A DNA stretch of 64,000 bases from a phage. The notes under the pieces are model-generated. The model had not been told where the DNA came from. It ran no database searches and saw only the letters and a program-made list of their open reading frames with translations. The stretch lies in assembly GCA_036252695.1 (NCBI GenBank), contig GCA_036252695.1_4122.1; one strand, written 5' to 3'. The position numbers and the translations under genes are program-made. Positions 2,780 to 48,306 of this stretch are shown in pieces (the first letter of the stretch is position 1; every line of letters begins with the position of its first letter).

Positions 2780-3035
2780 AGCTGAACTAATAGTTCATAC
2801 ATATAAAATGATATCAAGTACTGAGTTATCATATAGTGCAGATAATCCAGTACTGGATTATTTTGTTGAATTATTGAAAGAGCATTATATTGGTAAATCA
2901 CTGATTCTTAATAATATTAATTTCACGGTAAAGGATGTAGCACCTGGAAAAAACGTACTAATAGTATGTGTTACTTCATCTGATAACCCAGTATACCCAA
3001 TATCAATAATTTTTGAGATATTAGGAGATTTATGA
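2772..3035 (+). CDS. hypothetical protein, small paralog family
   Basis: Internal ATG of ORF 2649..3035, overlapping the previous stop (ATGA); contains KEHYIGKSLIL motif. Confidence 0.45.
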   Translation: MTKAELIVHTYKMISSTELSYSADNPVLDYFVELLKEHYIGKSLILNNINFTVKDVAPGKNVLIVCVTSSDNPVYPISIIFEILGDL

Positions 3036-5193: not shown

Positions 5194-5772
5194 ATGAATG
5201 TATTAGAATTAAGTACTAAGCTGATTAGTATGCGTAATGAGTGGTACGATTGGTTTTATAATGGTACTGATATGGATTTTTCAAAATATCCATTTATGGA
5301 ATCAGGATGTGATGCAAGATACCGCTGGTTGAGCAAAGATTGTTCTGGTTTACATATTCTAGTTGACGATAGTGGTCAGGGAATTATAAAAGATTTACTT
5401 CAAGTTGAACAACTCGTCCATGATAATTGGTGTGATAACGATCCATACCTTGGAAATATGATTTATGTAAGTGAAGATGATTGCATATTCGTTATCCAGC
5501 GTCATGGTAATTCTATGTTTTATGTAGCAGATAGCAGTACTCCAGAAGGTGCAGCAGCCGATGGACTTATGCCTAAGATTGATATATTGGAATTTGGATT
5601 ACCTGAGCACTTCCAGATTAGTACTTTATACGATATTCCACCACTTGAGTTCTTTGAAGAATTTAAATTGTACTACAATGATCTTCAAAAATTGAGTACT
5701 GATCGACGCATTGAAATAACTGTTAAGTACATGGACGGAACGAAATTAACTGATACGGGGATAGAATTTTGA
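5194..5772 (+). CDS. hypothetical protein
   Basis: 192-aa ORF preceded by a GGA-rich RBS. Confidence 0.55.
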   Translation: MNVLELSTKLISMRNEWYDWFYNGTDMDFSKYPFMESGCDARYRWLSKDCSGLHILVDDSGQGIIKDLLQVEQLVHDNWCDNDPYLGNMIYVSEDDCIFVIQRHGNSMFYVADSSTPEGAAADGLMPKIDILEFGLPEHFQISTLYDIPPLEFFEEFKLYYNDLQKLSTDRRIEITVKYMDGTKLTDTGIEF

Positions 5773-6458
5773 TTAAAGATTTAGATAGAATTTTATATGT
5801 ACTAAGGGGTGTAATTACATTACATCCACAAATCAATCGAATTGAAAGTACATTTCAGTTGGAGTCAAGAGAAACTCCATATTCACATATATCAAATGTA
5901 GTTGGTTCACTCAGTACTGAAGACTCGTCTTACGATATTTGTGTATGTGAAGTACAACCAAGTTCGGATCTTGGATTTGCTATTTTTGATAAAGATCAAA
6001 ATCTCATTAGTATGTTTCAGTGCAATAATCCTTTTTGGAAAACATGCCTGTATCCAGAGTGGGCTATGCTTGATCCAACCAAGAGTACCATTAAAGTTTA
6101 TGACTCTAAAAATGATGAAGTCGTTATTGATTTGGATGAGTCAATGTCAGAGGAAGAACACTTTCAGCTAATGATGATGCGTGCTATGCCGGAATACAAT
6201 GCAATGATTAACACTGTGCAATACATTAAGGATACCATGCCAGCGTTGCGTACACATGAGTTTTGTCATCCGGTATTGTATGAACATCTAGATTTAGACT
6301 TCAGTACTATTAAATTTAAAGATAGTGTTAAAAAATATATTCAAGAGAATGTTAAATTTGATTTTATTAGTACTATGAACAATAATCCAAAAACTAATTT
6401 TAGGCATCAGTACAATGAATCTTTGTCTAATGGACGTGATACCAGTTGGTGGAAATAA
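5769..6458 (+). CDS. hypothetical protein
   Basis: 229-aa ORF with stop-start overlap. Confidence 0.55.
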   Translation: MIKDLDRILYVLRGVITLHPQINRIESTFQLESRETPYSHISNVVGSLSTEDSSYDICVCEVQPSSDLGFAIFDKDQNLISMFQCNNPFWKTCLYPEWAMLDPTKSTIKVYDSKNDEVVIDLDESMSEEEHFQLMMMRAMPEYNAMINTVQYIKDTMPALRTHEFCHPVLYEHLDLDFSTIKFKDSVKKYIQENVKFDFISTMNNNPKTNFRHQYNESLSNGRDTSWWK

Positions 6459-28566: not shown

Positions 28567-28661
28567 TATCTATATCTTGACAAAAGGAACAAATCATGAG
28601 AACATGTATTAAAGGAAGAATGACTTTCCATTAGGTTATTTTAACTTAAAGGAGATTTCAT

Positions 28662-30443: not shown

Positions 30444-31415
30444 ATGAAAACTAAAATTATTTCTGAACAAAAAATTGGCAATACTACAGTACTGAATCTT
30501 GAAGTTCAAGGTCTTAGTAATGTTCGTTCTCTTACGGTTTGTACTCAGAGAGATGATTTGACTGATTTCTATAGCTCAGAATACATGTCAGAAGAACCTT
30601 GGGATATGGGATGGTTGGACGGTAGTAGTTATATCAGTTCACGTTATAGTTTTGGTTCTCATGAAAATATTGAACAATTAAAAAATGAGTATATTAAACT
30701 CAGTGATACTATTGAAATGAAAGAAGAAGATTGTGTAGAACTTTTCATTTTTGAATTCGATGCCGGAAATGGTAATTCATTACTAGTAAGTAATATTGAA
30801 GAACATTTAATGTATCATGAAATTGAAGATGTAGATTTTGAAAGTATTAAAAATGTTGTTCATATGGTTGGTGGTAGTATTACTGATGATTCAGATATCG
30901 GTCATAATATTTCACTGTGCTTAATTTCTCATCCAAAAACTCGTGGTTTTAAAGTTCCACAAGATGAAACTTACGTGTCTGAAACTGCTGATGAAGGAAT
31001 TTATCCTTGGAATGATTATGTAGAATACTATGGTCATTTCTGTTCTGATACAAAAGAACTGAAAAAAGGCGAACAATATTTTGATATGTTCCGTGCTGCA
31101 CAGCGTTTAGTACTGAATAATACTGAACTATTTCCTGATCGCGGCGAAGAAAATATGATTGATATTATCTTCAAGAACTATGATTATGTACAGAACATTC
31201 CTGATAATGTACATTTGGAATATGTTCACGGTTCTTCAAACAAATTCTATAATATTGAATTGAATGCTCCAGTGTGTGAAGTAATTATTGAGTACGGTGC
31301 TATTGGTAAAACCAGTACTACAGATGGTGAAGAATTCGAAACTATTGAAGAAGCACGTAAGTTCTTCGAGAAGAAAGTAATTTCTAAAATTAAAAGTGGT
31401 TATAGCCCAAAATGA
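30444..31415 (+). CDS. WGR-domain protein
   Basis: C-terminal ~80 aa (SSNKFYNIEL..YGAIGKT...EEARKFFEKK...GY) matches the WGR pattern; N-terminal 240 aa unassigned. Confidence 0.55.
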   Translation: MKTKIISEQKIGNTTVLNLEVQGLSNVRSLTVCTQRDDLTDFYSSEYMSEEPWDMGWLDGSSYISSRYSFGSHENIEQLKNEYIKLSDTIEMKEEDCVELFIFEFDAGNGNSLLVSNIEEHLMYHEIEDVDFESIKNVVHMVGGSITDDSDIGHNISLCLISHPKTRGFKVPQDETYVSETADEGIYPWNDYVEYYGHFCSDTKELKKGEQYFDMFRAAQRLVLNNTELFPDRGEENMIDIIFKNYDYVQNIPDNVHLEYVHGSSNKFYNIELNAPVCEVIIEYGAIGKTSTTDGEEFETIEEARKFFEKKVISKIKSGYSPK

Positions 31416-32606: not shown

Positions 32607-33221
32607 ATGACTACATCGGAAAAGTACTGGTGGATTTTGGGTCATCCTAAATTCATAAACAAAGATATGGTTCCAGCTAGGATTGATATTGAACCTCATG
32701 ATGTGTGTCCAATGACAAATCGAATTGAAGATTTCAAAGCATTGAATACAAAGACTCAATTTTGGGTAGAATTTCTTTCACCAATGTATATTGAGCAAGA
32801 CGACGAATGGGTACAAGCACATGATTATCAATTGGATTGTGGTGGTGATACGTATGAAGAGGCCATTGATGAATTATACAAAAATGTTCTGAACACATAT
32901 GGGGATTATACCCAACAGGAAGCAGATGATAAATTTCATAAAATACATTCATTCAATGCATCACAATCAATATATAATCCCGCTAAAACAGTTTGGGAGG
33001 AACGACACAGTTGGAGTTCATGTGTAATCGATGAAGAAACCAAAGAAAAAATCATCGATGACATAAAAAATTTAAAAAATACAATCCAAGCCTTGCGTGC
33101 ATTCATAAAGTCTTGTACAATAGGAGAACAGCAAGAGGCAAAGATACATTTGGAGAGTGAAGAATGTAAACTTTGGGTTCTAGAAAAATCACTTGAAAAG
33201 GGTATAGACTTAGACTTATGA
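32607..33221 (+). CDS. hypothetical protein
   Basis: ATG at 32607 after GGAG (track ORF opens at TTG 32595). Confidence 0.5.
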   Translation: MTTSEKYWWILGHPKFINKDMVPARIDIEPHDVCPMTNRIEDFKALNTKTQFWVEFLSPMYIEQDDEWVQAHDYQLDCGGDTYEEAIDELYKNVLNTYGDYTQQEADDKFHKIHSFNASQSIYNPAKTVWEERHSWSSCVIDEETKEKIIDDIKNLKNTIQALRAFIKSCTIGEQQEAKIHLESEECKLWVLEKSLEKGIDLDL

Positions 33222-33586
33222 ATAGTAAATTGGAGAAACTTGTTGAAGAATTACGCCGGATGCCACCTATTGAGCAAGTAGGGAACTACAAGCGGTATCG
33301 TGTGATTGCTCGTGCACTGGATAAAAAAGGTCGAGTACTGGCAACTCGCACAAATTCTTATACACAGACTCACCCAGTACAGAAGGGTTTCGCCATTCGT
33401 GCTGGGCGACCGCAAGGTGAGTTTCTTCATGCTGAAATTTCATGTTTACTGGCTGCTCGTGCTGATGTTCATACTTTACTGATTGCACGGATAAGTAAAG
33501 ATGGAATTCCTGTACCTGCCAAACCATGTGAAATTTGCACATTAGCAATTATGGAATACGGGGTTAAGGAAATTATCCACACATGA
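33218..33586 (+). CDS. small CDA-fold deaminase-like protein
   Basis: HAEISCLLAA and PCEICTLA zinc-binding motifs (H-A-E ... P-C-x-x-C) in a 122-aa protein, distinct from cd. Confidence 0.5.
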   Translation: MNSKLEKLVEELRRMPPIEQVGNYKRYRVIARALDKKGRVLATRTNSYTQTHPVQKGFAIRAGRPQGEFLHAEISCLLAARADVHTLLIARISKDGIPVPAKPCEICTLAIMEYGVKEIIHT

Positions 33587-34816: not shown

Positions 34817-34991
34817 AATCTTTAAAAAAGAATACGATGGTGAAAGTCTCTATGATATTCAGAGAGATGTGCATGAAGCCTTCGATTCAAGATTTAACCC
34901 ATTAGCTGAACAAATCCCACAAGATGAGTTTGGTTTTCAAGAAGGGACGTTCACAGTAACTATTACATGGAGTCCAGATGAGACTAGCTAA
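34806..34991 (+). CDS. hypothetical protein
   Basis: Internal ATG of track ORF 34755..34991; start uncertain. Confidence 0.35.
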   Translation: MQNEIFKKEYDGESLYDIQRDVHEAFDSRFNPLAEQIPQDEFGFQEGTFTVTITWSPDETS

Positions 34992-35093
34992 ACTTGTCAT
35001 AGGTTGCAGTGCACTTGCTGCATATATGCTTTTTTCCGCACCAACCAATGTATTACTGCTAATTTGGGCAGTTGTTATATTAGCAGTACTTTA

Positions 35094-35117
35094 AAAGCAC
35101 CCTTGTGGTGCTTTTTC
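35094..35117 (+). terminator. rho-independent terminator
   Basis: agcacc-cttgt-ggtgct hairpin followed by a T-run; near-identical to the one after nrdG. Confidence 0.5.
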
Positions 35118-35254
35118 TATTTGTGCAAATAAAAAGCAATGTGACTTTTCCTTGATATAGGTCAAGAGAAATAACCTGTTCTGACGCTATAATGTTGTCT
35201 GGTGATATTAAATATCTTCACCCCCAGATGATTTCAAAATACAAGGAATGTACA

Positions 35255-37060
35255 ATGCAATTAGATAAATTATATACCGATGTAACAAATTTCCTAAATC
35301 AGAGTAATACTGATCTTACTAATGAAAACGCTAATAAAGATGCAAAATGCGTCAATACACATAGAGATTTACTAGCAGGTATTCTATCTAAGCATTATTC
35401 ACAAGATGTTATTCCCACCGAGTTAATGCAATGGCATAATGATGGATATGGTCATATTCATGATTTAGATTACTATATTAGCCCATTGACCAATTGTTGC
35501 TTGGTTAACTATCCTGATATGCTTAAAAACGGCTTCACTATTGGTTGTGCTAAAATTGAAGAACCAAAAAGTTTCAGTGTAGCTTGCACAGTACTGACAC
35601 AAATTGTCCAAGCTGTTGCCAGTTCCCAGTACGGTGGACAATCGTTGGCTCATATTGACGTTGGTCTTGAACCTTACGTCCAAAAGTCATGGGATAAGCT
35701 GTTAGAAAAACAAAAGAAATATAATCTAAGTGATGAGTTCATTGAAGAAGAATTACGAAAAGAAGTATACGATGGATGTCAAACATTACTTTACCAGACT
35801 AATTCAATGATTAGCACTAATGGACAAGCTGCATTCATTTCTCTTAGTTTAGGGCTTAATACTTCTAAATTTGGTAAATTAATCACTGAACAGTACTTAA
35901 AAGTTCATGAGAATGGTTTAGGTAAAGATAAGATTACTCCAGTGTTTCCTAAAGTAATTTTCTTTTTACAAGATGGTATAAACATGAATACCAATGATAG
36001 TAATTATGACCTTAAACAGTTAGCTATGCGTTGTGCATCAAAACGAATCTACCCAGACTTTGTTTCAGTTCCATTAAATCACAAAGTGACTGGAAGTAGT
36101 AGTACTGCTGTAACACCGATGGGCTGTCGTTCATTCTTAGGAAAATGGGAAGATTCAAATGGAAATGAACAATACAACGGTCGTTTCAATTTAGGCGTAG
36201 TTTCTATCAATTTACCTCTAATTGCTCTTGAGAGTGCTTCTGATGGAGAGTTTTTTGATAAGATAGACGAGCACATGAATATTGCATATCGTGCTCAGAT
36301 GAACCGTGTGGAGCGTTTAAAAGGCACTAAAGCGAAGCAGAATCCAATTTTGTTCATGGAAGGTGCATTAGCACGTTTAGGTGCAGAAGAAACCATTGAC
36401 AAGCTATTTTACAATGGTTATGCTAGTATTAGTATTGGTTATGTTGGTCTTGTTGAATGTTCAGAAATCCTCACTGGTTCTATCAGTAAGGAGTTTTGTA
36501 TGTCAGTACTGAATTATATGAAAGTAAAATGTGATGAGTTCAAAAAAGAAAGTAATATTGCTTTTAGTCTATATGGAACTCCAGCAGAGTCGCTTTGTTA
36601 TAAATTTGCACGTTGCATTGAAGCAAAATATCCTTCAGTACTAAAACGTGATTACATCACAAATTCCTTCCATCAACCAGTATGGGTAGAAAGTTCTCCA
36701 TTTGATAAATGGAGTTATGAAGAAGGGTTTGCTTACCTAAGTAACGGTGGAAACATCAGTTATGTTGAATCTCCAAACTTAGCAAACAACATTCAAGCAC
36801 TTGAAACATTAGTTAACTATGCGTACACTAAGATACCATATTTTGGTATTAACCAACCAGTTGACCATTGTTATGAATGTGGCTTCCAGGGTGAGTTCAG
36901 TGTAGATAAACATGGTTTCCACTGTCCGGTATGTGATAATCGTAATGAGAAGACAATCTCAGTGATTCGTCGTGTTTCTGGTTACTTGGGTAATCCTTCT
37001 TCGCGTGGATTCAATAAAGGCAAACAACAAGAGTGTTGTGAGCGTATTCAGCACAAATAA
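35255..37060 (+). CDS. nrdD: anaerobic ribonucleoside-triphosphate reductase
   Basis: Glycyl-radical motif RRVSGYLGNP near the C-terminus, zinc ribbon CYECG...CPVCD, N-terminal NENANKD as in T4 NrdD; start taken at in-frame ATG 35255 after AAGGA (track ORF opens at 35192). Confidence 0.85.
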   Translation: MQLDKLYTDVTNFLNQSNTDLTNENANKDAKCVNTHRDLLAGILSKHYSQDVIPTELMQWHNDGYGHIHDLDYYISPLTNCCLVNYPDMLKNGFTIGCAKIEEPKSFSVACTVLTQIVQAVASSQYGGQSLAHIDVGLEPYVQKSWDKLLEKQKKYNLSDEFIEEELRKEVYDGCQTLLYQTNSMISTNGQAAFISLSLGLNTSKFGKLITEQYLKVHENGLGKDKITPVFPKVIFFLQDGINMNTNDSNYDLKQLAMRCASKRIYPDFVSVPLNHKVTGSSSTAVTPMGCRSFLGKWEDSNGNEQYNGRFNLGVVSINLPLIALESASDGEFFDKIDEHMNIAYRAQMNRVERLKGTKAKQNPILFMEGALARLGAEETIDKLFYNGYASISIGYVGLVECSEILTGSISKEFCMSVLNYMKVKCDEFKKESNIAFSLYGTPAESLCYKFARCIEAKYPSVLKRDYITNSFHQPVWVESSPFDKWSYEEGFAYLSNGGNISYVESPNLANNIQALETLVNYAYTKIPYFGINQPVDHCYECGFQGEFSVDKHGFHCPVCDNRNEKTISVIRRVSGYLGNPSSRGFNKGKQQECCERIQHK

Positions 37061-37068
37061 GGTAAATT

Positions 37069-37401
37069 ATGGATTTAAAGCCAATTGTGGTTAACAAATA
37101 CAAAGAACCGTATGATGTGTATATTGGACGTGGGTCTAAATGGGGAAACCCATTTACCCATATTAAAGATAAACAAACTAAAGCCGAATTCATTGTTAGT
37201 ACAAGAGAAGAATCAATTGAAAAATTCAGAGAATACATTATTGAACGTATTTCTTGTGGAGAAGTTAAGATTGATGAATTACTTGAACTCGCAGGGAAAC
37301 GCCTTGGTTGTTTCTGTAAACCAAAATCATGTCACGGCGATGTTCTTGTCGAAATAGTGAGTGCAATATTAGATGAATTACCAGACGATAATGAAGGATG
37401 A
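37069..37401 (+). CDS. hypothetical protein (DUF4326-like)
   Basis: 110 aa with YIGRGSKWGNPF motif, between nrdD and nrdG; family assignment from memory only. Confidence 0.5.
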   Translation: MDLKPIVVNKYKEPYDVYIGRGSKWGNPFTHIKDKQTKAEFIVSTREESIEKFREYIIERISCGEVKIDELLELAGKRLGCFCKPKSCHGDVLVEIVSAILDELPDDNEG

Positions 37402-37843
37402 TTTAGTAAATGGAGAGGGCGTTCGCTGCTCTTTATTTGTTAGTGGGTGTTCGCACGGATGTGATGGTTGCTTCAATGAAGAAGCATGGGACTACCGAAG
37501 TGGACAAGAGTTCAGTACTGAAACAGTTGAGATTATACTACAGGAACTAAAAAAACCATATGTTAGTGGTTTGTCACTTCTAGGCGGCGATCCATTAATG
37601 AAAAAGAATATAGATGAAGTTTTAAATCTATGCAAAGTAGTTAAAGAAACTTATCCTAGTAAAACTATTTGGTGCTGGAGTGGGTATACTTTAGATGAGA
37701 TTATGAAAAATCATGCTAAAGATATACTTCAGTACTTAGATGTATTAGTTGATGGTAAGTTTATCGAGTCCGAAAAGAATTTAAAATTACCTTTCCGTGG
37801 TTCAAATAATCAAAGAATACTATATAAAAATAAAGATTTTTAA
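37373..37843 (+). CDS. nrdG: anaerobic RNR activating protein (radical SAM)
   Basis: CxxxCxxC cluster (GCSHGCDGC), N-terminus colinear with T4 NrdG; start may be ATG 37391 instead. Confidence 0.8.
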   Translation: MNYQTIMKDDLVNGEGVRCSLFVSGCSHGCDGCFNEEAWDYRSGQEFSTETVEIILQELKKPYVSGLSLLGGDPLMKKNIDEVLNLCKVVKETYPSKTIWCWSGYTLDEIMKNHAKDILQYLDVLVDGKFIESEKNLKLPFRGSNNQRILYKNKDF

Positions 37844-37846
37844 CAT

Positions 37847-37869
37847 AAGCACCCATTGGGTGCTTTTTT
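37847..37869 (+). terminator. rho-independent terminator
   Basis: Perfect aagcaccc-att-gggtgctt hairpin followed by a T-run. Confidence 0.55.
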
Positions 37870-37877
37870 GTTATGTA

Positions 37878-37885
37878 TATAAATA
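37878..37885 (+). promoter_or_regulatory. T4-type late promoter box TATAAATA
   Basis: Exact TATAAATA 34 nt upstream of the first fibre-like gene; the only clear copy found by eye in intergenic DNA. Confidence 0.5.
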
Positions 37886-37919
37886 CATTAACTAATATCT
37901 AATTTATAAGGGATATATA

Positions 37920-40616
37920 ATGTCAAAGAAAATATATGGTGGCTTGGATGTCACACATAATGTGACAGTTAATGGTAAAAGAACAATACAAGGTATCAAT
38001 GATCAAGTATTTGATGCTAATGGCAATATGGAGCTAGATACTTATTCAAGAGATGAAGTACTAGATATCGTCAGTATGATGCCAATTTCCCATTATGGGT
38101 CACAAAACTATCTTCCTGCTGGTGTATCTGGTGATTTCAATGGTGCATCTGAAAACCAGTCCCAACGTAGAAATAAAATTTTATTAGAAAACGATGGTAC
38201 ACTCGTATTATTACGTAGTGGTACAAACGGTAGTGTTGAGGGATTATATTATTCATATTTGGCTAACGCATTATCAGTTGATGACATGAGCCGTACAATT
38301 AACACCAGTCGTCAATACAAGCCTGGTTTTTTCGGTTCAAATCGCGTCGCAATTGGCTTATACAATACTGATCCAAATATTTTACTCGGTAGATATGTAG
38401 ACACTTCTAACAGTACTAATGGATTGTTTATTTCTATTACTAATGGTACATTAGATGATAAATTACATACTGGTTTTTTTGTAAATCAAGCAGATATTTG
38501 CCCTGAAGGTGGTATAGAATTTGCAATGATGGCTGAAGATGGTTCAATCTATGTCTTTAGTGTTCTTAATGAAAATAACCAACTACAGTTAGTTGTTGTC
38601 CGAGTTGTATATAATATTAGCAATGGAACATATACGGCAACTCGTATTACAGGATGGACTACAAAAACATTCTATAATACAACTTATTCTGCACAGAATA
38701 ACATGGTTATTACTAATCAAGTAACTTCAACTAATATAGCAGATAAGCCTTATGTGTATGTACCACAAAACCTACGTGGTATTGGGATTTATATGACATC
38801 CATTGATTTGTATGTTGCACAGCAACCAGGAACACAGAACTTTCGTTTTAGAATGAATGGTGATGCATGGTTTACAATGGCGACATATAATGCCCGACCA
38901 CAACATAGCTACAGCTTTGCATTTAATATGAGTACTAAACAATGCACCCTAGACGCTGGGAATGACATAGGTTCATATCAAGCACCATTGGTTATAACCA
39001 ATACTGGTTCTGCATTAGTGCCTACAGGTAACGTTTTAAATAATGATCCATTATATAATCATGCTAATGCAAGAAACATTTATAGTTCTTATTTTTACTT
39101 AAGTTCAGGTGAAGCTTTTTGTACTGTGTGTCCAAACTTAGCAGAACCATTACTTATGCAAAAAGCAAAGTTTCCTATACAAATTGTTTATAGTATGATT
39201 AACGTTCGTGCAGTACAATCAACTGATTTTAAAGGTGGAGTTGTTAGACCATCCTTTGGTTCAGCAGTTGGTTCATTTATTAATGGTGTGGAGTTGTTAC
39301 CAGATAATAGTACTAAACAATATTCACGTGCGTCTGGTAGTGGTGGGTTTAGACCATCATATGCAGTTCATAAAAGTACTCCTAATTTTACATTTAAATC
39401 ATTATCTTTAGGAACCATACAAGGTTATGAACCTACAACTGAACGTGGTTATGTAGATGATAATGCCAATAATAGAATTTTCATTAGTAGTATTTCAGGT
39501 TCAACTGTAACAACTAATGGCGGTATTTTTATGGTTGGTCAACGTTATTCACAATCATTTTCATATGATAAAAACTTAAATGGTACTGGTGTTATTAGTG
39601 TTACACAATCAGTTCTAGATAACTTTAGAAATACAGAATATGCTAAAGTTCTAAGTGACTGGAACTTATCTTCACAAGCTTATCGTGATATGACATTATT
39701 TGTTCCACAACAAACTGACATTCCGGCTTTTGTTATGTTGAGTACTATAACAAATGACTATAAAAACTATATTAGAATTGCTGAAGTTAACGTTAATACT
39801 AGAGTTGGAAATATAACATCTATTACCTTTAAGCGTTTAGTACTAGAAAATACATATGGTGAAAACTTTACACCTAATGGTAATGGTTCGATTGCATCTT
39901 CTTCTGTTGGGTTAACAATTTATGATGGTGGTTCATTCTACTTCATTGGTGGTTCTGACCCATTAACACATCCAACAATAGGAAATACAGCAACTCATCA
40001 ATTTAGAGCATATGTAACTAAATCAACTGCACAATTTACAAGTTTTGTTATTACTGGTTCTCATGCCAGTTATGAACAAGGAAGACAACCCACTGCGTTG
40101 CCTGGTATTGGATTTGGTATTTTTGATCCACTGGATTATACAAATAAAATGTCATTTCAAAAATATGGAACAACGATAGCCGACTATAATAACTGGACTC
40201 CACAAGGTAGCCCAATTAACGTAGTATCACAAGACGTTGCTCAAGGGTTTATTGTTTATTTTACAGAGGAAACACCAGTTATACTATCAGGTAAGTCTTT
40301 TACACTACCAGTTTCAAATATTGATTTGAGAACTATAAAATCTAATCCAGCAAATACAACATTTTATGTATATGTTAAATTAGAACAAGGGTTGGCAAAC
40401 TACTACATAACTACTGATGTTATTTCCGAAACAGGAACAACTGCATATAATATTTTTTGGATAGGTACTATTCAAACTAACGCAATTCAAATCGAAACTA
40501 TTAATATACAAAAACGTTCACGTTTAGATATATTTGGTGCTTCACTTGAATCAGCAGGTTCATCGTTCCCAGTTAGCTACGGTCTACCATCACAAACAGG
40601 AACCATAAACTGGTAA
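37920..40616 (+). CDS. putative tail fibre / receptor-binding protein (paralog A)
   Basis: 898 aa, Ser/Thr/Asn/Gly-rich; N-terminal, internal and C-terminal (GSSFPVSYGLPSQTGTINW) modules shared with the 939-aa ORF. Confidence 0.5.
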   Translation: MSKKIYGGLDVTHNVTVNGKRTIQGINDQVFDANGNMELDTYSRDEVLDIVSMMPISHYGSQNYLPAGVSGDFNGASENQSQRRNKILLENDGTLVLLRSGTNGSVEGLYYSYLANALSVDDMSRTINTSRQYKPGFFGSNRVAIGLYNTDPNILLGRYVDTSNSTNGLFISITNGTLDDKLHTGFFVNQADICPEGGIEFAMMAEDGSIYVFSVLNENNQLQLVVVRVVYNISNGTYTATRITGWTTKTFYNTTYSAQNNMVITNQVTSTNIADKPYVYVPQNLRGIGIYMTSIDLYVAQQPGTQNFRFRMNGDAWFTMATYNARPQHSYSFAFNMSTKQCTLDAGNDIGSYQAPLVITNTGSALVPTGNVLNNDPLYNHANARNIYSSYFYLSSGEAFCTVCPNLAEPLLMQKAKFPIQIVYSMINVRAVQSTDFKGGVVRPSFGSAVGSFINGVELLPDNSTKQYSRASGSGGFRPSYAVHKSTPNFTFKSLSLGTIQGYEPTTERGYVDDNANNRIFISSISGSTVTTNGGIFMVGQRYSQSFSYDKNLNGTGVISVTQSVLDNFRNTEYAKVLSDWNLSSQAYRDMTLFVPQQTDIPAFVMLSTITNDYKNYIRIAEVNVNTRVGNITSITFKRLVLENTYGENFTPNGNGSIASSSVGLTIYDGGSFYFIGGSDPLTHPTIGNTATHQFRAYVTKSTAQFTSFVITGSHASYEQGRQPTALPGIGFGIFDPLDYTNKMSFQKYGTTIADYNNWTPQGSPINVVSQDVAQGFIVYFTEETPVILSGKSFTLPVSNIDLRTIKSNPANTTFYVYVKLEQGLANYYITTDVISETGTTAYNIFWIGTIQTNAIQIETINIQKRSRLDIFGASLESAGSSFPVSYGLPSQTGTINW

Positions 40617-41231: not shown

Positions 41232-43961
41232 ATGTCATCAAAACGAATTATAGGAAGTGCCGAGATCCTTGGGAACTTGGCAATTGGACAAAGGTACGCT
41301 ATGCGTACTTTTAATGGAACCTCACCGAATGCCAATACTGGAATTGTTCAATATCCAATATATAAGCGTTCAGAAGTTCAAAGTATTTTAGATATGTTGC
41401 CTATATCACGTGTAGGAGAAATGGATTACTTGCCATTAAACGTAAGTGGGTCGTATGAAGGTGCTACACCTATGTCAAGTGACCAAGTAGTTCAGCCAAC
41501 AATTATTGAAGATGATGGAACCGCCGTTGTTCTGCGTAGCGGAACCAATGGTAGTACTAAAGGTTTTTATTATTCATTTATACGAGAAATCAGAAATATA
41601 ACCATGATTTCACAAGAAAGTGTTATTTCAACCAATTCAATGTATAAACCTTCAATTATGAGTAGTACAGAGAATATTAAGTATTTTATTGGCTCTAATG
41701 GTTATGAAATGCTTGGATGTTTAAGTACAGAAGATAATTATATTTTTACTATAACTAATGGTACATTCAACGAAGTATCACATATTCATGCTAAAGTACC
41801 AAGTACTTCTTTTGGTAATGATATGCCTATATATACTCATATTGTTGGAACAAAAGTATATATTTGGTGTAAAGATAAAAGTGTTTCTAATTTAGGATTA
41901 GCACTTTCAATTTATACAGTAGAGCTAAGTGATGTGAAAGCAAGCTCAATGGCATCATTAACAAAAGTTACTGGATTATCAGGGCAAACTGTTCGAAATA
42001 CAAGTTATTCTGCATCTAATAACATAAGAGTGTTTGATAGATTATATAGTGTTGGTACTAGCTCGGATTCATTATTCGAAGTTACATCACCAGTCTCACG
42101 TGTAGAATTTTCGGATTATACAGACTTTAATATACAAGCAAACGTTAGTACTGATTTATCCAAAATACGTGTAACTTTATACCCAACCCATAGAATGGTT
42201 ACACCTTTATATATTTCAACAGTGTATGGTACTGGTATCAGTTTTGTTTATAATATAAACTCAAAATCTATGTCACTAGATGGTTCTGCTCGTGCTCCTG
42301 CTACAGTTTCATATGATAATGGATTTCAAGTTTCTAACCCATTTGAAATCAATATGGTCAACTTTACTGGGACAACTGCTGCTGGTGTATTAGGAAACGC
42401 AGGTGGTTTATGTCAAACCAAAGATGGTTTAGTATTTGCATCTAAATTTAGATGGAGTTCAACTGAATTTTATGGTCTACAACGATATAAGGTTAGTGGT
42501 ACACCGTTTGATTCATGGGTTGCTAGTACTAGATCCGCAAGTAACGTTATAAATGCAAACGTTTTACCAGTTTTTGGTAGTGCTGTTGGTGCAAACCTAT
42601 TAGGTGTACGTTTCATCGATAATAGAAAAATATTATTAGCATGTTCTGGTACGTATGATGATGTAACATATAATTATAATAATACTGTTTTTTCTGAAAT
42701 AGGCTCACAACCAACATATCAATATAACTCAGTTCAAAATAATACTACATTAAATGGTTTTGCACCACAATCTAATCGTAAACAAATAGGTGATGATTTT
42801 ACATACACTGCTATGATTTCTCTTGTTGATACCGATGGTAGTGTTAGATGTTATGGAACATCATTCATTGAAGGTGTATATAAAACAAGTGGTGGATTAT
42901 TAAACCCAGATACTTTAGAATTTGATGAAACATATACAATAGAACCAACGGTATTAGAATCATTAAAACAAGATATTTTTGCTAATCTAGGAAACTCTGG
43001 CATTGTTGGTACACTATCTGGACAAATTGTATTATATTATGTACCTGATAATACTTTTTCTAAATCCATTGCAGTAGTTTCAGCATATAATCTTAACAAT
43101 AACCAAGGTTATGCAATCTATGCCGAAGTTGATGTTGTATTATCTGGATCTAACATAACTTCAGCTACATTGGTAAGTACTAGATATGAGACACTTAGTT
43201 CTGTTACAGGAATTATTACTGAAGCATATATGAAACGTTGTACTGGTCTAACAGTTGCTAAATATTCAGGATTTGGTTATATTGGTGTTGATGCAGTTCA
43301 TCAATTTTCACAACCAGGTAATGCACAATTTAAGATGATGATAGCTAAAACAGTAAATGGTGTCATAACATCAAATCGTTTTTTATCATCTAGTTACATC
43401 CAACTCGGTGCAGCATATCAACATGGTGTTATTCCTGGTGTTGGTTTTGGATATTACAATTTTCAAGATTCTGACTATCAAACCAAATCTGTATTCAGCG
43501 TTTTTGGTACAACATCTGCTGAAATGGATGGTTTAATTAGCGGAAATGGTAGCGTTAAAGAAAAGATTGTGGTAGTATCACAAGACGTTGCACAAGGATT
43601 CTCAGTGTACTTTACACGTGAAGTTCCGGTATTTTTAGGTGGAATTTTCGACAGACTACCTATACAAAGTGTAGATTTAAGTACTGTAAAAAATAATCCA
43701 GCTAATACTACGTTCTATTTGTATATACAAATGAACAGGAATACTAAGAAAGCTTCATATGTTATTAGTACTGAAACTATTGATGAATCTTTAACTAGCA
43801 CTTACATTGGTAAGATAGTTACTGGAACTTCAGGAATTACTTCGATTGATACTGAAAAAGTGACTCGTTTTTTGACATATCGCCCAAGTACAACGAAACG
43901 TGGTTCAGCGATACCTGCCAGTACTGGTGTACCGTCTGGGTCAGGCACACGTTGGAAATAA
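41232..43961 (+). CDS. putative tail fibre / receptor-binding protein (paralog B)
   Basis: ATG at 41232 after AAGGA; shares LRSGTNGS, VVSQDVAQGF..VYFT and C-terminal motifs with paralog A. Confidence 0.5.
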   Translation: MSSKRIIGSAEILGNLAIGQRYAMRTFNGTSPNANTGIVQYPIYKRSEVQSILDMLPISRVGEMDYLPLNVSGSYEGATPMSSDQVVQPTIIEDDGTAVVLRSGTNGSTKGFYYSFIREIRNITMISQESVISTNSMYKPSIMSSTENIKYFIGSNGYEMLGCLSTEDNYIFTITNGTFNEVSHIHAKVPSTSFGNDMPIYTHIVGTKVYIWCKDKSVSNLGLALSIYTVELSDVKASSMASLTKVTGLSGQTVRNTSYSASNNIRVFDRLYSVGTSSDSLFEVTSPVSRVEFSDYTDFNIQANVSTDLSKIRVTLYPTHRMVTPLYISTVYGTGISFVYNINSKSMSLDGSARAPATVSYDNGFQVSNPFEINMVNFTGTTAAGVLGNAGGLCQTKDGLVFASKFRWSSTEFYGLQRYKVSGTPFDSWVASTRSASNVINANVLPVFGSAVGANLLGVRFIDNRKILLACSGTYDDVTYNYNNTVFSEIGSQPTYQYNSVQNNTTLNGFAPQSNRKQIGDDFTYTAMISLVDTDGSVRCYGTSFIEGVYKTSGGLLNPDTLEFDETYTIEPTVLESLKQDIFANLGNSGIVGTLSGQIVLYYVPDNTFSKSIAVVSAYNLNNNQGYAIYAEVDVVLSGSNITSATLVSTRYETLSSVTGIITEAYMKRCTGLTVAKYSGFGYIGVDAVHQFSQPGNAQFKMMIAKTVNGVITSNRFLSSSYIQLGAAYQHGVIPGVGFGYYNFQDSDYQTKSVFSVFGTTSAEMDGLISGNGSVKEKIVVVSQDVAQGFSVYFTREVPVFLGGIFDRLPIQSVDLSTVKNNPANTTFYLYIQMNRNTKKASYVISTETIDESLTSTYIGKIVTGTSGITSIDTEKVTRFLTYRPSTTKRGSAIPASTGVPSGSGTRWK

Positions 43962-45123: not shown

Positions 45124-45629
45124 TTTCATTTTTCAAAAAGAAACAAAAAGTTGATGAAACCGGATTAGAATCGTTTCTATGGACTCTTATCATCAAAAAA
45201 AGTCCATTGATAAAAGAATATGCTATCAATGATGCTAATAGAAAAACTATCATTGAATACAAATATGAATTATCTAAATGTGATCCAATTGTTTATCACT
45301 TTGCGAAGTACTGTTCAAAAAATTTATCGGATATCACAATCTACCACGAGTCAGTCCCAATGAGTTTTCCTTATGGTGATTGGGTAGATACTTTTGATAT
45401 TTTTGATGGGTCAAATGGTTTCAGTTTCTTTTACTCGTCAAATAAAGCAAGTGTTCGTATTAAAACAGACATAGGTTGGACAAAGCATAGCTCAAATAAA
45501 GAAGATTATAATTTATTAGCTGACGTATACCGAAGTGTGAAGAATTCAAAGGATATTGATGAAAGAATTAAAAAGCAAAATCGTATATCTTTATCACTTG
45601 AAACATACAAGTCAAAGTATGGTGGTTAA
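45120..45629 (+). CDS. hypothetical protein (triplicated family, copy 3)
   Basis: 169 aa paralog (NDANRKTIIEYKYELSK); ATGA overlap. Confidence 0.55.
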   Translation: MISFFKKKQKVDETGLESFLWTLIIKKSPLIKEYAINDANRKTIIEYKYELSKCDPIVYHFAKYCSKNLSDITIYHESVPMSFPYGDWVDTFDIFDGSNGFSFFYSSNKASVRIKTDIGWTKHSSNKEDYNLLADVYRSVKNSKDIDERIKKQNRISLSLETYKSKYGG

Positions 45630-45631
45630 CT

Positions 45632-46033
45632 ATGACTACAGTTGATGATATCTATAGCACTATACGCAATATGAGTACAGATAGAAAAGTATTTGGCGAT
45701 AAAGAAAAATCTAAGTGTTATGGTATTGATTCTTTTGATATAATTTCTTATGAGTACAATACAAGTGGAAATAGTTCACTGAATATCGTCTGTCCTCGTG
45801 ATCCAGAAAATAATTTTATGTATGTTGAAATTAATAATGATGGAATGTTTTTTACAAAAGTTTTCAAAGGTGGAATTAATTACGAACCTATTGAATGTAT
45901 GAATGAAGAAACTTTCTTTCAAGAAGATACAATTATCAATTTAGGTTTTAGTTTTGATGATTATAAAACATTAGAACATGACTTTAATCGTTATTATAAT
46001 GGTTTCTTAAAGGAGTTAACAATTTATCTATGA
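45632..46033 (+). CDS. hypothetical protein
   Basis: 133-aa ORF. Confidence 0.5.
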   Translation: MTTVDDIYSTIRNMSTDRKVFGDKEKSKCYGIDSFDIISYEYNTSGNSSLNIVCPRDPENNFMYVEINNDGMFFTKVFKGGINYEPIECMNEETFFQEDTIINLGFSFDDYKTLEHDFNRYYNGFLKELTIYL

Positions 46034-48306
46034 ATAACCAATATATTGAACAAACAATAGTGAAACACTTGGCTGGGTCACAAGCCTACGGAACCAGTAC
46101 ACCTGAAAGTGATACTGATTATCGTGGTATTTTTCTTGCTAATAAAGAATTTATTCTTACACCCTTCTATAAGGTCAAAGAGGTAGCTGATAAAAGCGAA
46201 GAAGATACTAAATTCTATGAGTTGAATCAGTATTTAAAATTATACACTGAAGCTAACCCTAATATTCTTGAATCACTTTGGGTTGAACCTGAACACATTG
46301 TTGAAAGTACTGAAATTTATGACTATCTTCGTTCATTTAACCAAAAACTTCTTAGTTCCAAGATTGCATTTTCATATACTGGTTATGCATATAATCAGAT
46401 TAAGCGTATGACAAATCATCACGGTTGGATGGATAAAGAGCATATTGCTGAACGTAAACTAAATGAAATTTTAGAAGAACATCCAGTCGATGAGGTTCTT
46501 GCGTGGATGTATGATTCATTTCCACAATATCTTGTTGAACGTTTAGATACATCGAACTTACATCCATTTAATGCTAAAAAGATTGATTTTGAAAAATATA
46601 TGCGTGATACGTCATTGCAGTTAGTTTCGAAAAATCCATTAAAGCAATATCATTTTGTAAGATTAGTGCATAACTACACTACTGATAAAATTCTAGATCG
46701 TGATTTCAATTTATTGAATTTTAATAATGGCTATGAACTAATTCATTACGGAGAAAACATTTTTGCGATTATTAAAAATCCGAATGAAAGTACTATCAAT
46801 GCTGATGGTTCACTACGTTACTTCAATAAAGAACGTACTTCGGAAGAATTAAAAGTTCGTCCTGAACTCATTGTAAAATTCAATGAAAAGGAATACAAAG
46901 AAAATAGTGAGAACCGTAAGAGTTATCACAAATGGAAGCAGAACCGTAATGCCAAACGTGCTATTCTTGAATCACACCACGGTTATGACTGTTATAGTTT
47001 TGATACTGAATTCTTAACTAAAGATGGTTGGAAGTTATTTGATGATATTACTGAAAACGATCTATTAGCTACTTTTGACAAAAATCACAAAGTTGAATAT
47101 CAGAAATACACTGAACGTTTTGATAATTTATATAATGGCAATCTATACCATTTCACTGGTCATCACCAAGATACTTTAGTGACTGCTAACCACCGAATGT
47201 ATGTTAAGGATTATGCACGAAATCAACAAAAAGATATGTCTGATTGGAAATTTGTAGAAGCAGCACAATTAAAAGAAACATATAAAATTTTGAATACAAT
47301 ATCCCCAATAACTAAAGAACACAAAGATAAAAAAAGTCCAATTGACTACATGGATATCAAAGTTTATCTTCAACTCATGGGATGGTTTATTTCAGATGGG
47401 TGCATAAATTTCAGGGATGGTAAAGTAAAATCTTTATATATTTCCCAGTCAAAAACTAGTCAAGGTATGCGTTGTGCTTTATCAAAATACAAAAAATCTG
47501 GTCAATTAATGTTTAATGAATACATTATAGAAAAGAAAGATTATCAAGCTAATGACGAATCAAGATATACATTCCCAAGTGAAGTAGCTGAAGCATTATA
47601 TAATGATTGTGGACATGGTTCATATAATAAACGAATTCCAAATTGGGTATTTGATTTAACAAAACGTAAAATGGATTTCCTTCTGAAAGGTTTGTTACAA
47701 GGGGATGGAACAAAACGAAATTTAGTTAATGACAATGATACATTTGTATATTATACTGCCAATTCATTATTAGCTGATGATGTTCAAAAACTAGCATTAC
47801 TATGTGGTTATGAAACATCAAAATGGGGACCATACACAAACGAAACCAATTTTGGTAGTGTTGATATATATCAAATTCATATCAATATGAAACCCAAAAC
47901 CGAAAAAATGAACATGAAACAAAATCTTGAAAAAATTCCAGTTACTAATTACAGAACTGTGTGTTTTTCTGTTCCCAACGGAACACTCATTACTCGTAGA
48001 AATGGAAAAACCGCATTACATGGAAATTGCAAACATGCTATGCATACAATCAGGCTGCTGAATACAGCCGAGGAAGCACTTGAAACTGGTATCATCCAAG
48101 TTCACCGACCGGATGCTGCTATGTTGATGGACATTCGTAACGGGAAGTGGTTGTATCAAGAAGTTATGGATTATTTCAACGAAAAGGTTGACTACATCCG
48201 AAATGTGGCGTATCATAAAACTCATCTACCGAAGCGACCGAACATAAAGTTGGCGACAAAGGTACTATTAGATATCCGTGAAATGCAATGGTACAGTAAA
48301 AAATAA
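46030..48306 (+). CDS. Pol-beta-superfamily nucleotidyltransferase interrupted by an intein-like insertion
   Basis: N-terminal LAGSQAYGTSTPESDTDYRG (GS...SDxD) nucleotidyltransferase motif; a central ~346 aa carries intein/homing-endonuclease hallmarks. Confidence 0.55.
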   Translation: MNNQYIEQTIVKHLAGSQAYGTSTPESDTDYRGIFLANKEFILTPFYKVKEVADKSEEDTKFYELNQYLKLYTEANPNILESLWVEPEHIVESTEIYDYLRSFNQKLLSSKIAFSYTGYAYNQIKRMTNHHGWMDKEHIAERKLNEILEEHPVDEVLAWMYDSFPQYLVERLDTSNLHPFNAKKIDFEKYMRDTSLQLVSKNPLKQYHFVRLVHNYTTDKILDRDFNLLNFNNGYELIHYGENIFAIIKNPNESTINADGSLRYFNKERTSEELKVRPELIVKFNEKEYKENSENRKSYHKWKQNRNAKRAILESHHGYDCYSFDTEFLTKDGWKLFDDITENDLLATFDKNHKVEYQKYTERFDNLYNGNLYHFTGHHQDTLVTANHRMYVKDYARNQQKDMSDWKFVEAAQLKETYKILNTISPITKEHKDKKSPIDYMDIKVYLQLMGWFISDGCINFRDGKVKSLYISQSKTSQGMRCALSKYKKSGQLMFNEYIIEKKDYQANDESRYTFPSEVAEALYNDCGHGSYNKRIPNWVFDLTKRKMDFLLKGLLQGDGTKRNLVNDNDTFVYYTANSLLADDVQKLALLCGYETSKWGPYTNETNFGSVDIYQIHINMKPKTEKMNMKQNLEKIPVTNYRTVCFSVPNGTLITRRNGKTALHGNCKHAMHTIRLLNTAEEALETGIIQVHRPDAAMLMDIRNGKWLYQEVMDYFNEKVDYIRNVAYHKTHLPKRPNIKLATKVLLDIREMQWYSKK
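46990..48027 (+). mobile_element. intein-like element with LAGLIDADG homing endonuclease
   Basis: Begins CYSFDTEFLTKDGW (block A-like), then TANH (block B-like), two LAGLIDADG-like motifs (LMGWFISDGC and LKGLLQGDGT), ends ..ALHGN followed by Cys. Confidence 0.45.

Follow-up and report, generated by a model that had tools for sequence, protein, structure and literature searches.

How does a virulent phage that carries its own anaerobic ribonucleotide reductase (RNR) control when this enzyme is made, and what do two hairpins with the same stem do at the borders of its operon? We addressed these questions in a 64,000-nt stretch of phage DNA (GenBank assembly GCA_036252695.1, contig GCA_036252695.1_4122.1; the whole stretch is called the window below), in which positions 35,094 to 37,869 hold nrdD, a small gene of the DUF4326 family and nrdG between two hairpins. 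An earlier reading of the sequence alone (the sequence-only reading) had described this interval as an RNR operon bracketed by near-identical terminators and had suggested a duplicated regulatory element, but had missed a conserved FNR box and promoter between the first hairpin and nrdD. This well-conserved, previously unannotated FNR-type promoter, predicted from sequence, and an invariant leader element next to it are what is new here. The interval is probably an insulated operon switched on by host FNR under anaerobiosis, a reading in which the sequence elements with their conservation and spacing are shown, and in which we infer where transcription starts, that FNR binds, that anaerobiosis induces the operon and how efficiently the hairpins terminate.

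We compared bases 34900-38000 with sequenced phages. The interval was 100% identical to Escherichia phage vB_EcoM_G17 (MK327931.1; Asteriusvirus; 370,817 bp). Identity was 97-98% with further Asteriusvirus phages such as 121Q and PBECO4 and ~70% with RaK2 (Alcyoneusvirus), GAP32 (Mimasvirus) and the Erwinia/Yersinia phages of Eneladusvirus. By sequence identity and its GenBank record, G17 is a Rak2-like jumbo phage of a lineage distinct from the T4-like phages, and the comparison with T4-like relatives that had been proposed was the wrong frame. The operon as first described is ordinary and was annotated beforehand: the GenBank record of G17 already carries both hairpins (as ARNOLD terminators), nrdD, nrdG and the label "conserved domain DUF4326" on the middle gene. 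No relative without the nrd cassette was seen among the nucleotide-level relatives of the interval. The features on which the argument is built are as follows.

35093-35115, T-tract to ~35120, + strand: hairpin 1, AAAAGCACC-CTTGT-GGTGCTTTT, predicted terminator of the upstream unit (folding, terminator scan, ARNOLD in GenBank)
35152..35165, + strand: candidate FNR box TTGATATAGGTCAA, one mismatch to TTGAT-N4-ATCAA, with the FNR-type TTGA and not the CRP-type GTGA
35188..35193, + strand: TATAAT, a perfect sigma-70 -10 hexamer separated from the FNR box by 22 nt; AGAGAA at the -35 position (1/6 matches)
35209..35222, + strand: leader block TAAATATCTTCACC, consensus TAAATAA(A)TTCACC, possibly an alternative -10 plus start site, or an operator
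35255..37060, + strand: nrdD, class III anaerobic RNR, 601 aa (Pfam, E. coli alignment)
37373..37843, + strand: nrdG, radical-SAM activase of NrdD, 156 aa (PF13353, E = 2.6e-53; PF04055, E = 3e-09)
37847-37865, then TTTTTT, to 37871, + strand: hairpin 2, AAGCACCC-ATT-GGGTGCTT, predicted operon terminator (folding, terminator scan, ARNOLD in GenBank)

The predicted FNR promoter and the leader block

The centre of the FNR box lies 29.5 nt upstream of TATAAT, which would correspond to -41.5, the class II geometry, with a transcription start near 35200 as placed by the -10 hexamer. The box was found upstream of nrdD, at -90 to -103 from the ATG, in all 14 Rak2-like IMG/VR loci and in the five GenBank relatives examined (5/5); most relatives carry the perfect consensus TTGAT-N4-ATCAA. 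Column conservation reached 1.0 and 0.96 in the two half-sites versus 0.64-0.67 in the flanks and spacer. When 14 distinct sequences were compared without gaps, the half-sites were 90-100% identical to G17, whereas the flanks and spacer fell to 33-48% in the more distant lineages. The distance from the box to TATAAT was 22 nt in G17, Asteriusvirus and Alcyoneusvirus and 23 nt in other lineages, and TATAAT itself was kept in Asteriusvirus, Alcyoneusvirus and three further loci (L130, L132 and L168; L numbers label individual sequences of the comparison).

Beyond the Rak2-like loci, an FNR site within 200 nt upstream of the true nrdD start was present in three of the scannable IMG/VR loci only (L171, L176 and L144). 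L171 and L176 are two Aeromonas-phage-like contigs, and the remaining match outside the Rak2-like set is doubtful. Both contigs (~46-53 kb; positions 2900-3000), which come from a phage group unrelated to the Rak2-like one, show the same succession: nrdB is followed by a GC-rich terminator and a perfect FNR/ANR box (TTGATTTTAATCAA or TTGATCTCAATCAA) and then, after 22 nt, by TAnnnT and nrdD. The nearest phages of L171 are the Aeromonas phages LA93P1/PVN03. In the T4-like nrdD loci, the 200 nt before the start were free of FNR boxes. FNR-like matches upstream of many other non-Rak2 nrdD genes (L139-L160) were rejected; they lie within the ATP-cone coding region, where they encode VDFDQ, and vanish at the true start of the open reading frame (ORF). 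Two perfect consensus sites elsewhere in the window, at 5986-5999 and 47861-47874, were likewise set aside, being intragenic (ORFs 5769-6458 and 46030-48306), with no promoter context and probably due to chance in AT-rich coding DNA.

The leader block was more invariant still. In 15 distinct sequences TAAATA was unchanged and started exactly 43 nt after the end of the FNR box, the stretch from the box to TAAATA being free of insertions and deletions. The ends of the block appear complementary by eye, but a leader RNA hairpin was rejected: minimum free energies (MFE) lay between -0.9 and -9 kcal/mol, z was near 0 for the majority of lineages, and the L134 sequence did not fold. The strict DNA spacing to the FNR box points to a DNA-level element rather than an RNA hairpin. 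The block fitted no known motif and is not an NrdR box.

The two enzymes were identified by family and motif. NrdD matched PF13597 over the whole profile (1-562/562; E = 1.9e-166) and the Gly_radical family PF01228 (E = 1.2e-22), and its residues 5-600 aligned collinearly with residues 96-704 of E. coli NrdD at 44% identity, so that the phage protein lacks the N-terminal ATP-cone. Its translation shows the glycyl-radical motif RVSGY (RRVSGYLG) and, as the Zn-ribbon cysteines, a C-terminal CxxC...CxxC (CYECGF...CPVCDN). NrdG, encoded in the same operon, carries the CX3CX2C cluster motif (CSHGCDGC), and together the two proteins are a predicted class III anaerobic RNR system by both kinds of evidence. 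The annotated nrdD start at 35255 has an AAGGAA ribosome-binding site, and a 622-aa version from 35192 in the ORF list was discarded as an over-extension. T4 nrdD (sunY) carries a group I intron. The sequence-only reading had noted that nrdD is uninterrupted here, and this was borne out: G17 nrdD is a single ORF with unbroken full Pfam coverage, collinear with the E. coli protein, and Rfam families, group I introns included, gave zero matches anywhere in the window, which rules out a group I intron in this gene.

We compared the phage promoter region with that of the host operon. In a passage of PMC2892513 that cites Roca 2008, host nrdDG is stated to be activated anaerobically by FNR, and the same source gives the NrdR regulon rule of two tandem 16-bp boxes ~31-32 bp apart. 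The E. coli nrdDG upstream sequence shows two FNR sites as well as two NrdR boxes. The NrdR pattern ACACWATATATWGTGT at ≤3 mismatches recovered both E. coli nrdD upstream boxes, 31 nt apart, and gave no match in 35095-35255 of the phage. The phage and E. coli operons share the same two enzymes in the same order, with NrdG proteins of the same Pfam families and FNR-type boxes upstream. They differ in that the two E. coli FNR sites lie far upstream of the -10 and are accompanied by NrdR boxes, whereas the phage region contains one FNR box only, at class II distance from TATAAT, and no NrdR boxes; the phage also adds the invariant TAAATA...CACC block and a passenger gene between nrdD and nrdG. 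Class II FNR promoters of enterobacteria, with a site at about -41.5 overlapping a weak -35, resemble the phage region in TTGAT-N4-ATCAA, the 22 nt to the -10 and the missing -35 match. The phage site differs from them in lying on a virulent phage genome, in the invariant element at +10 to +23 and in having a start and an FNR dependence that are predicted, the start from the -10.

In the reading that we favour, the interval would be a self-contained transcription unit of G17 encoding NrdD, its activase NrdG and one lineage-specific passenger (DUF4326). Hairpin 1 would stop transcription arriving from the upstream nucleotide-metabolism genes and shield the nrd promoter from read-through, and hairpin 2 would end the operon ahead of a late-type promoter; with terminators at both ends, expression would depend on the promoter between hairpin 1 and nrdD. 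Such insulation from the neighbours is what conditional, oxygen-dependent expression would need. The promoter appears to have no usable -35, and the predicted FNR site would take its place in the class II position (-41.5). [4Fe-4S]-FNR, which forms only without oxygen, would then recruit host RNA polymerase, so that the oxygen-sensitive enzyme would be made only when it is able to work. With neither NrdR boxes nor an ATP-cone, the phage would thus keep oxygen control and drop feedback by deoxyadenosine triphosphate (dATP). Support also comes from relatives in which the same operon holds a second anaerobic function, a glycyl-radical gene of the GrcA type.

Several observations weigh against host FNR acting in this way, and part of them favours a different driver of the operon. 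With ≤1 mismatch allowed, matches to the FNR pattern are not uncommon in the AT-rich window (17 versus 9.8 expected), and for this reason the argument is built on conservation; position and conservation together make the case for FNR, and the sequences compared are phylogenetically related. Host sigma-70 polymerase and FNR may not stay available during infection, and these phages encode their own sigma factors (PMC5259590). TAAATA may instead be the true -10; if transcription then begins at the A of the conserved CA (A35220), the centre of the FNR box would lie at -61.5, the canonical class I position, and this geometry fits as well as the class II one. Under either geometry the promoter would depend on FNR. 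The leader block may alternatively bind another factor that dominates regulation.

Taken further, these points would give an operon driven by a phage-specific promoter or regulator through TAAATAA(A)TTCACC, with the palindrome either bound by a non-FNR factor (a phage protein or another member of the CRP/FNR family) or serving as a class I site, and with oxygen not the controlling signal or not the sole one. TAAATA is indeed the most invariant element, at its fixed distance from the box, and it is intact in L138 and L192, whose class II -10 hexamers are degenerate (GTTTTT and GTTGAA, respectively); it lacks, however, the -7 T needed by sigma-70. Rak2-like phages encode RpoD-like and gp55-like sigma factors and use the late motif ATAAATA (PMC5259590), but the first base of the leader block is never the A of that published motif, and the block is not repeated anywhere else in the window, including upstream of other genes, which rules it out as a general phage promoter. 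The palindrome, for its part, is the exact FNR consensus in most lineages, with the FNR-type TTGA; the known hosts of the Rak2-like relatives (Escherichia, Klebsiella, Cronobacter, Erwinia and Yersinia) are all facultative anaerobes, and the regulated genes serve anaerobic functions. We consider a phage-specific driver of this kind possible but rather doubtful, and retain anaerobic activation by host FNR as the probable mode of control.

A wider proposal combines these elements: Rak2-like jumbo phages and, independently, ~50-kb phages of the Aeromonas type would have wired their anaerobic RNR to host FNR and discarded dATP feedback, with TAAATAA(A)TTCACC as a second control element through which a phage factor would perhaps time the operon. 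We give this fuller proposal about an even chance. If it is true, a virulent phage reads the redox state of its host to choose its pathway of deoxyribonucleoside triphosphate synthesis, and the FNR box offers a concrete example, cheap to test, of a lytic phage that puts a metabolic gene under the control of an environmental sensor of its host. This would bear on the behaviour in anoxic niches of phages used against gut E. coli, Klebsiella and Cronobacter, and FNR control would also explain the terminators that fence the operon. No description of FNR control of phage nrdD, or of the leader element, was found in the literature searched, where absence is no proof of novelty; the promoter tables of phage CBB give no promoter for CBB nrdD.

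Predicted terminators at the borders of the operon

The folding of both hairpins was compared with that of shuffled sequences. Hairpin 1 had an RNA MFE of -10.9 kcal/mol (z = -3.8) and hairpin 2 of -15.0 kcal/mol (z = -4.1), and equally good folds arose in 0/200 shuffles for each. Each stem is followed by 5-6 T, and the hairpins begin 0-4 nt downstream of a stop codon, that of a 38-aa ORF and that of nrdG, respectively. Both were among the 17 sites that a terminator scan found in 15 kb (5.9 expected). By these sequence features the two hairpins are intrinsic terminators, with a termination efficiency that is predicted. The pattern AAGCACC-N3-8-GGTGCTT occurred at two sites only in the 64-kb window, namely the two hairpins, and in 0/100 shuffles, and the stems of ~20 further terminator-like hairpins in the window were unrelated to AAGCACC/GGTGCTT. 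The sequence-only reading was thus right that two stable terminators with a common stem flank the nrd operon.

The two hairpins differed in their distribution among relatives. The hairpin 1 stem GCACC(C)/(G)GGTGC was kept with four different loops in G17, UE-S1, A4, RaK2, L130, L132 and L168, and hairpin 1 was missing from the Mimasvirus and Eneladusvirus lineages (GAP32, pEa_SNUABM_49, L134, L135, L138, L192 and L196). The hairpin 2 stem (A)AGCACCC/GGGTGCT(T) was kept in 11 distinct Rak2-like sequences, with all 88 of 88 cells paired; six of the eight pairs were invariant, one showed a compensatory change from A-U to G-C (L137, L138) and one a wobble, and the loops of 3-5 nt were all different. 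In RaK2, hairpin 2 is swapped for an unrelated terminator. The stem was common to both hairpins in every lineage that has both, and the likeness between them was limited to ~20 nt (A-tract, stem and T-tract), with dissimilar flanks.

Repeated terminators were frequent elsewhere in G17. In another 50 kb of the genome (L218, record 1-50000), GCCAGTAC occurred seven times, GGGTTGAC-TTCG three times identically and AGCCCAC-CTTAAACA twice identically. As G17 is full of such repeated terminator families, the hairpin pair is therefore not special. The shared stem most likely reflects local terminator duplication, which is typical of the G17 genome and requires no special joint function, although this cannot be proven for this pair. 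Two points count against it. The search for further terminator copies covered 114 of the 371 kb of G17, and terminator duplication cannot be separated from convergence on sequence, since many unrelated viral contigs carry hairpins of the form AAGCACC...GGTGCTT (IMG/VR pattern scan, among the matches listed). The same scan was uninformative as a per-genome copy count, the matches listed being unrelated contigs, so such hairpins are generic. Of the "duplicated regulatory element" that had been suggested, the shared stem is therefore real and duplication plausible; duplication as such was not demonstrated, as the flanks are dissimilar and the pattern is generic in viruses.

The hairpins might instead act as a sequence-specific pair, either as targets of an RNA-binding or antitermination factor or as repeats marking the ends of an nrd cassette that moves or recombines. 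The GCACC(C) stem is kept at both positions wherever both exist while loops and flanks diverge, and the six unvarying pairs of hairpin 2 could be taken in the same sense; a stem pair was, however, changed by compensation in L137 and L138, and RaK2 has replaced hairpin 2 just as Mimasvirus and Eneladusvirus do without hairpin 1. The genes between the hairpins differ among lineages, as a mobile cassette would allow, but the variable cargo sits inside the operon, away from the hairpins, and no cassette-less relative was seen. Both hairpins, moreover, show all the ordinary features of intrinsic terminators directly after stop codons, repeated terminators are common in G17, and unrelated viruses often have this stem. 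A specific pair of this kind is accordingly very improbable, and local duplication of ordinary terminators remains the preferred explanation.

The unit resembles phage "moron"-style units and the early arrays of G17 with their repeated terminators in having its own predicted promoter, intrinsic terminators as borders and stems that recur in the genome. It differs from morons in being conserved across at least four genera and not sporadic, and from the G17 early arrays in that the terminator pair flanks one operon instead of trailing tandem paralogues. In those arrays the repeated terminators follow tandem paralogous genes (e.g. 28575-28593, 31035-31053, 43893-43920, 45308-45333 and 46588-46617), and copying seems to have carried them along with adjacent genes or from one adjacent gene to another. 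The Rak2-like contig L196 has, at ~703 and thus 2298 nt upstream of nrdD, a third hairpin of related stem, AAGCACCGT-ACTAG-ACGGTGCTT, which hints that AAGCACC-type stems recur beyond the nrd operon in these genomes.

In Mimasvirus and Eneladusvirus (L005:1380-1420, L006, L134, L135, L138, L192, L196), a palindrome ACCCC-N5/7-GGGGT with a T-run stands between the FNR box and TAAATA. It has no counterpart in the Asteriusvirus promoter spacer and overlaps the putative -10. This hairpin possibly stands in for the missing hairpin 1 as the upstream terminator; with hairpin 1 or the ACCCC hairpin present in each lineage, a terminator-like hairpin thus lies just upstream of the nrdD leader in all lineages.

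Two further features adjoin the hairpins.

34978..35094, + strand: G17_00428, a hydrophobic ORF of 38 aa, annotated as a coding sequence, which closes the upstream transcription unit and whose stop codon extends into hairpin 1
37878..37886, + strand: TATAAATAC, a T4-late-type promoter motif right after hairpin 2 and 34 nt before an 898-aa ORF (37920-40616)

The product of G17_00428 had no match in Pfam, PHROG or PADLOC searches. The motif TATAAATAC occurred once in the window and was conserved as ATAAATAC in UE-S1, A4 and GAP32. An ATAAATA motif has been described upstream of structural genes in CBB and GAP32 (PMC5259590), and TATAAATAC matches this late motif; as judged from its sequence and position, it marks a separate unit outside the nrd operon. 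On the upstream side, the ORF at 33218-33586, two transcription units before the nrd operon, is noted in GenBank as identical to the "dCMP deaminase" of 121Q, and the nucleotide-metabolism neighbourhood around the operon is kept in A4, RaK2 and GAP32.

The genes between nrdD and nrdG

The small gene that the sequence-only reading had recognized by its WGNPF motif lies between the two RNR genes.

37069..37401, + strand: DUF4326 gene, 110 aa (PF14216, E = 6e-24), sharing 29 nt at its 3' end with the start of nrdG

Pfam confirmed the identities that had been proposed for all three genes of the operon, the DUF4326 protein scoring 84.9 bits against PF14216 (gathering cut-off 25). A homologue search returned 3114 sequences at E ≤ 0.001, with matches in 2281 phage records. 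WGNPF corresponds to residues 25-29: in 37 homologues W25, G26 and P28 were nearly invariant and N27 invariant, and F29 was not among the conserved residues. Invariant positions were D16, Y18, G20, R21, S23, N27, C81, C83, P85, C88, H89, G90 and D91, the later ones forming a second motif, CxCxPxxCHGD. T4 NrdA.1 is a DUF4326 homologue that is 44% identical to the G17 protein and shares both motifs. Its gene is annotated upstream of nrdB in the td/nrdA-nrdB region, whereas the G17 gene occupies the nrdD-nrdG slot and other members of PF14216 lie elsewhere.

The content of the slot varied among the Rak2-like phages. It was empty in L130, L132 and L138, in which nrdD is directly followed by nrdG; it held DUF4326 alone in G17 and 121Q, a GrcA-type gene plus DUF4326 in A4, UE-S1 and RaK2, a methyltransferase-like gene plus others in GAP32, and five genes including a GrcA-type one in pEa_SNUABM_49. 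In Yersinia phage fHe-Yen9-04, DUF4326 lies outside the nrd operon, beside a tRNA-His guanylyltransferase gene. The description of the gene as inserted between nrdD and nrdG, with homologues elsewhere, therefore holds, and DUF4326 looks like lineage-specific cargo from this distribution. A general genomic association of DUF4326 with RNR was unsupported, there being no RNR neighbour in four other phage contigs or in Eneladusvirus.

The only functional proposal found for DUF4326 is a prediction by Iyer, Burroughs and Aravind, in which the domain is rhodanese-phosphatase-like and has phosphates of ADP-ribose derivatives as its targets (PMC7824862, PMC9503650). Our AlphaFold2 model of the G17 protein (mean predicted local distance difference test score 90.9) showed a strand-C83-X5-H89-helix layout, which is compatible with that prediction and neither confirms nor refutes it. 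Foldseek against the PDB gave no match at E ≤ 0.001 (best 2.1), and a PDB profile search, a permissive Pfam scan and PADLOC returned nothing usable on function. The protein could serve ribonucleotide reduction in an accessory role, for instance as a phosphatase with a nucleotide product or by-product as its substrate. DUF4326 adjoins RNR genes in two unrelated groups (T4 NrdA.1 and Asteriusvirus/Alcyoneusvirus) and its 3' end runs into nrdG, yet it is missing from the operon in L130, L132, L138, GAP32 and pEa_SNUABM_49, and both the location in fHe-Yen9-04 and the four other phage contexts lack the association. The strand-CX5H loop-helix of the model fits the rhodanese/phosphatase-like prediction (PMC9503650), but no structural or profile match points to any specific chemistry, and the published domain fusions lead to NAD/ADP-ribose conflict systems and not to RNR (PMC9503650, PMC7824862). 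A role in ribonucleotide reduction is thus unlikely, and lineage-specific cargo remains our description of the gene.

The GrcA-type gene of the relatives encodes 120 aa that consist of a glycyl-radical domain only. It was observed in the nrdD-nrdG slot of A4 (L003:3641-4003), UE-S1 (L002:4336-4695), RaK2 (L004:3542-3904) and pEa_SNUABM_49 (L006:5874-6236), and G17 and 121Q are without it. The protein matched the autonomous glycyl radical cofactor (GrcA/YfiD) at E = 5.7e-30 and the C-terminus of pyruvate formate-lyase at 4.5e-30, compared with 0.32 for NrdD. From these matches it looks like a phage "spare part" for oxygen-damaged pyruvate formate-lyase, presumably co-transcribed with the anaerobic RNR. 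An intron in UE-S1/A4 nrdD, as the split annotation "nrdD / pyruvate formate-lyase" might suggest, was rejected, since the ~520 extra bases are this separate gene.

The T4 nrdD/nrdG locus resembles that of G17 in encoding a phage class III RNR of ~600 aa without an ATP-cone and in a slot between the two genes that accepts extra genes, the T4 occupant being mobD. The two differ in lineage and in that T4 nrdD bears an intron and G17 nrdD (Asteriusvirus) does not.

A last terminator-like hairpin, AGAGGGCG-TTCGC-TGCTCTTT followed by ATTTG, was seen at 37414-37434, right after the DUF4326 stop and within the first 60 nt of the nrdG coding sequence. A similar hairpin occupies the same nrdG position in L130, which has no DUF4326, and the hairpin may simply follow from the conserved NGEGVRCSLF peptide encoded there.

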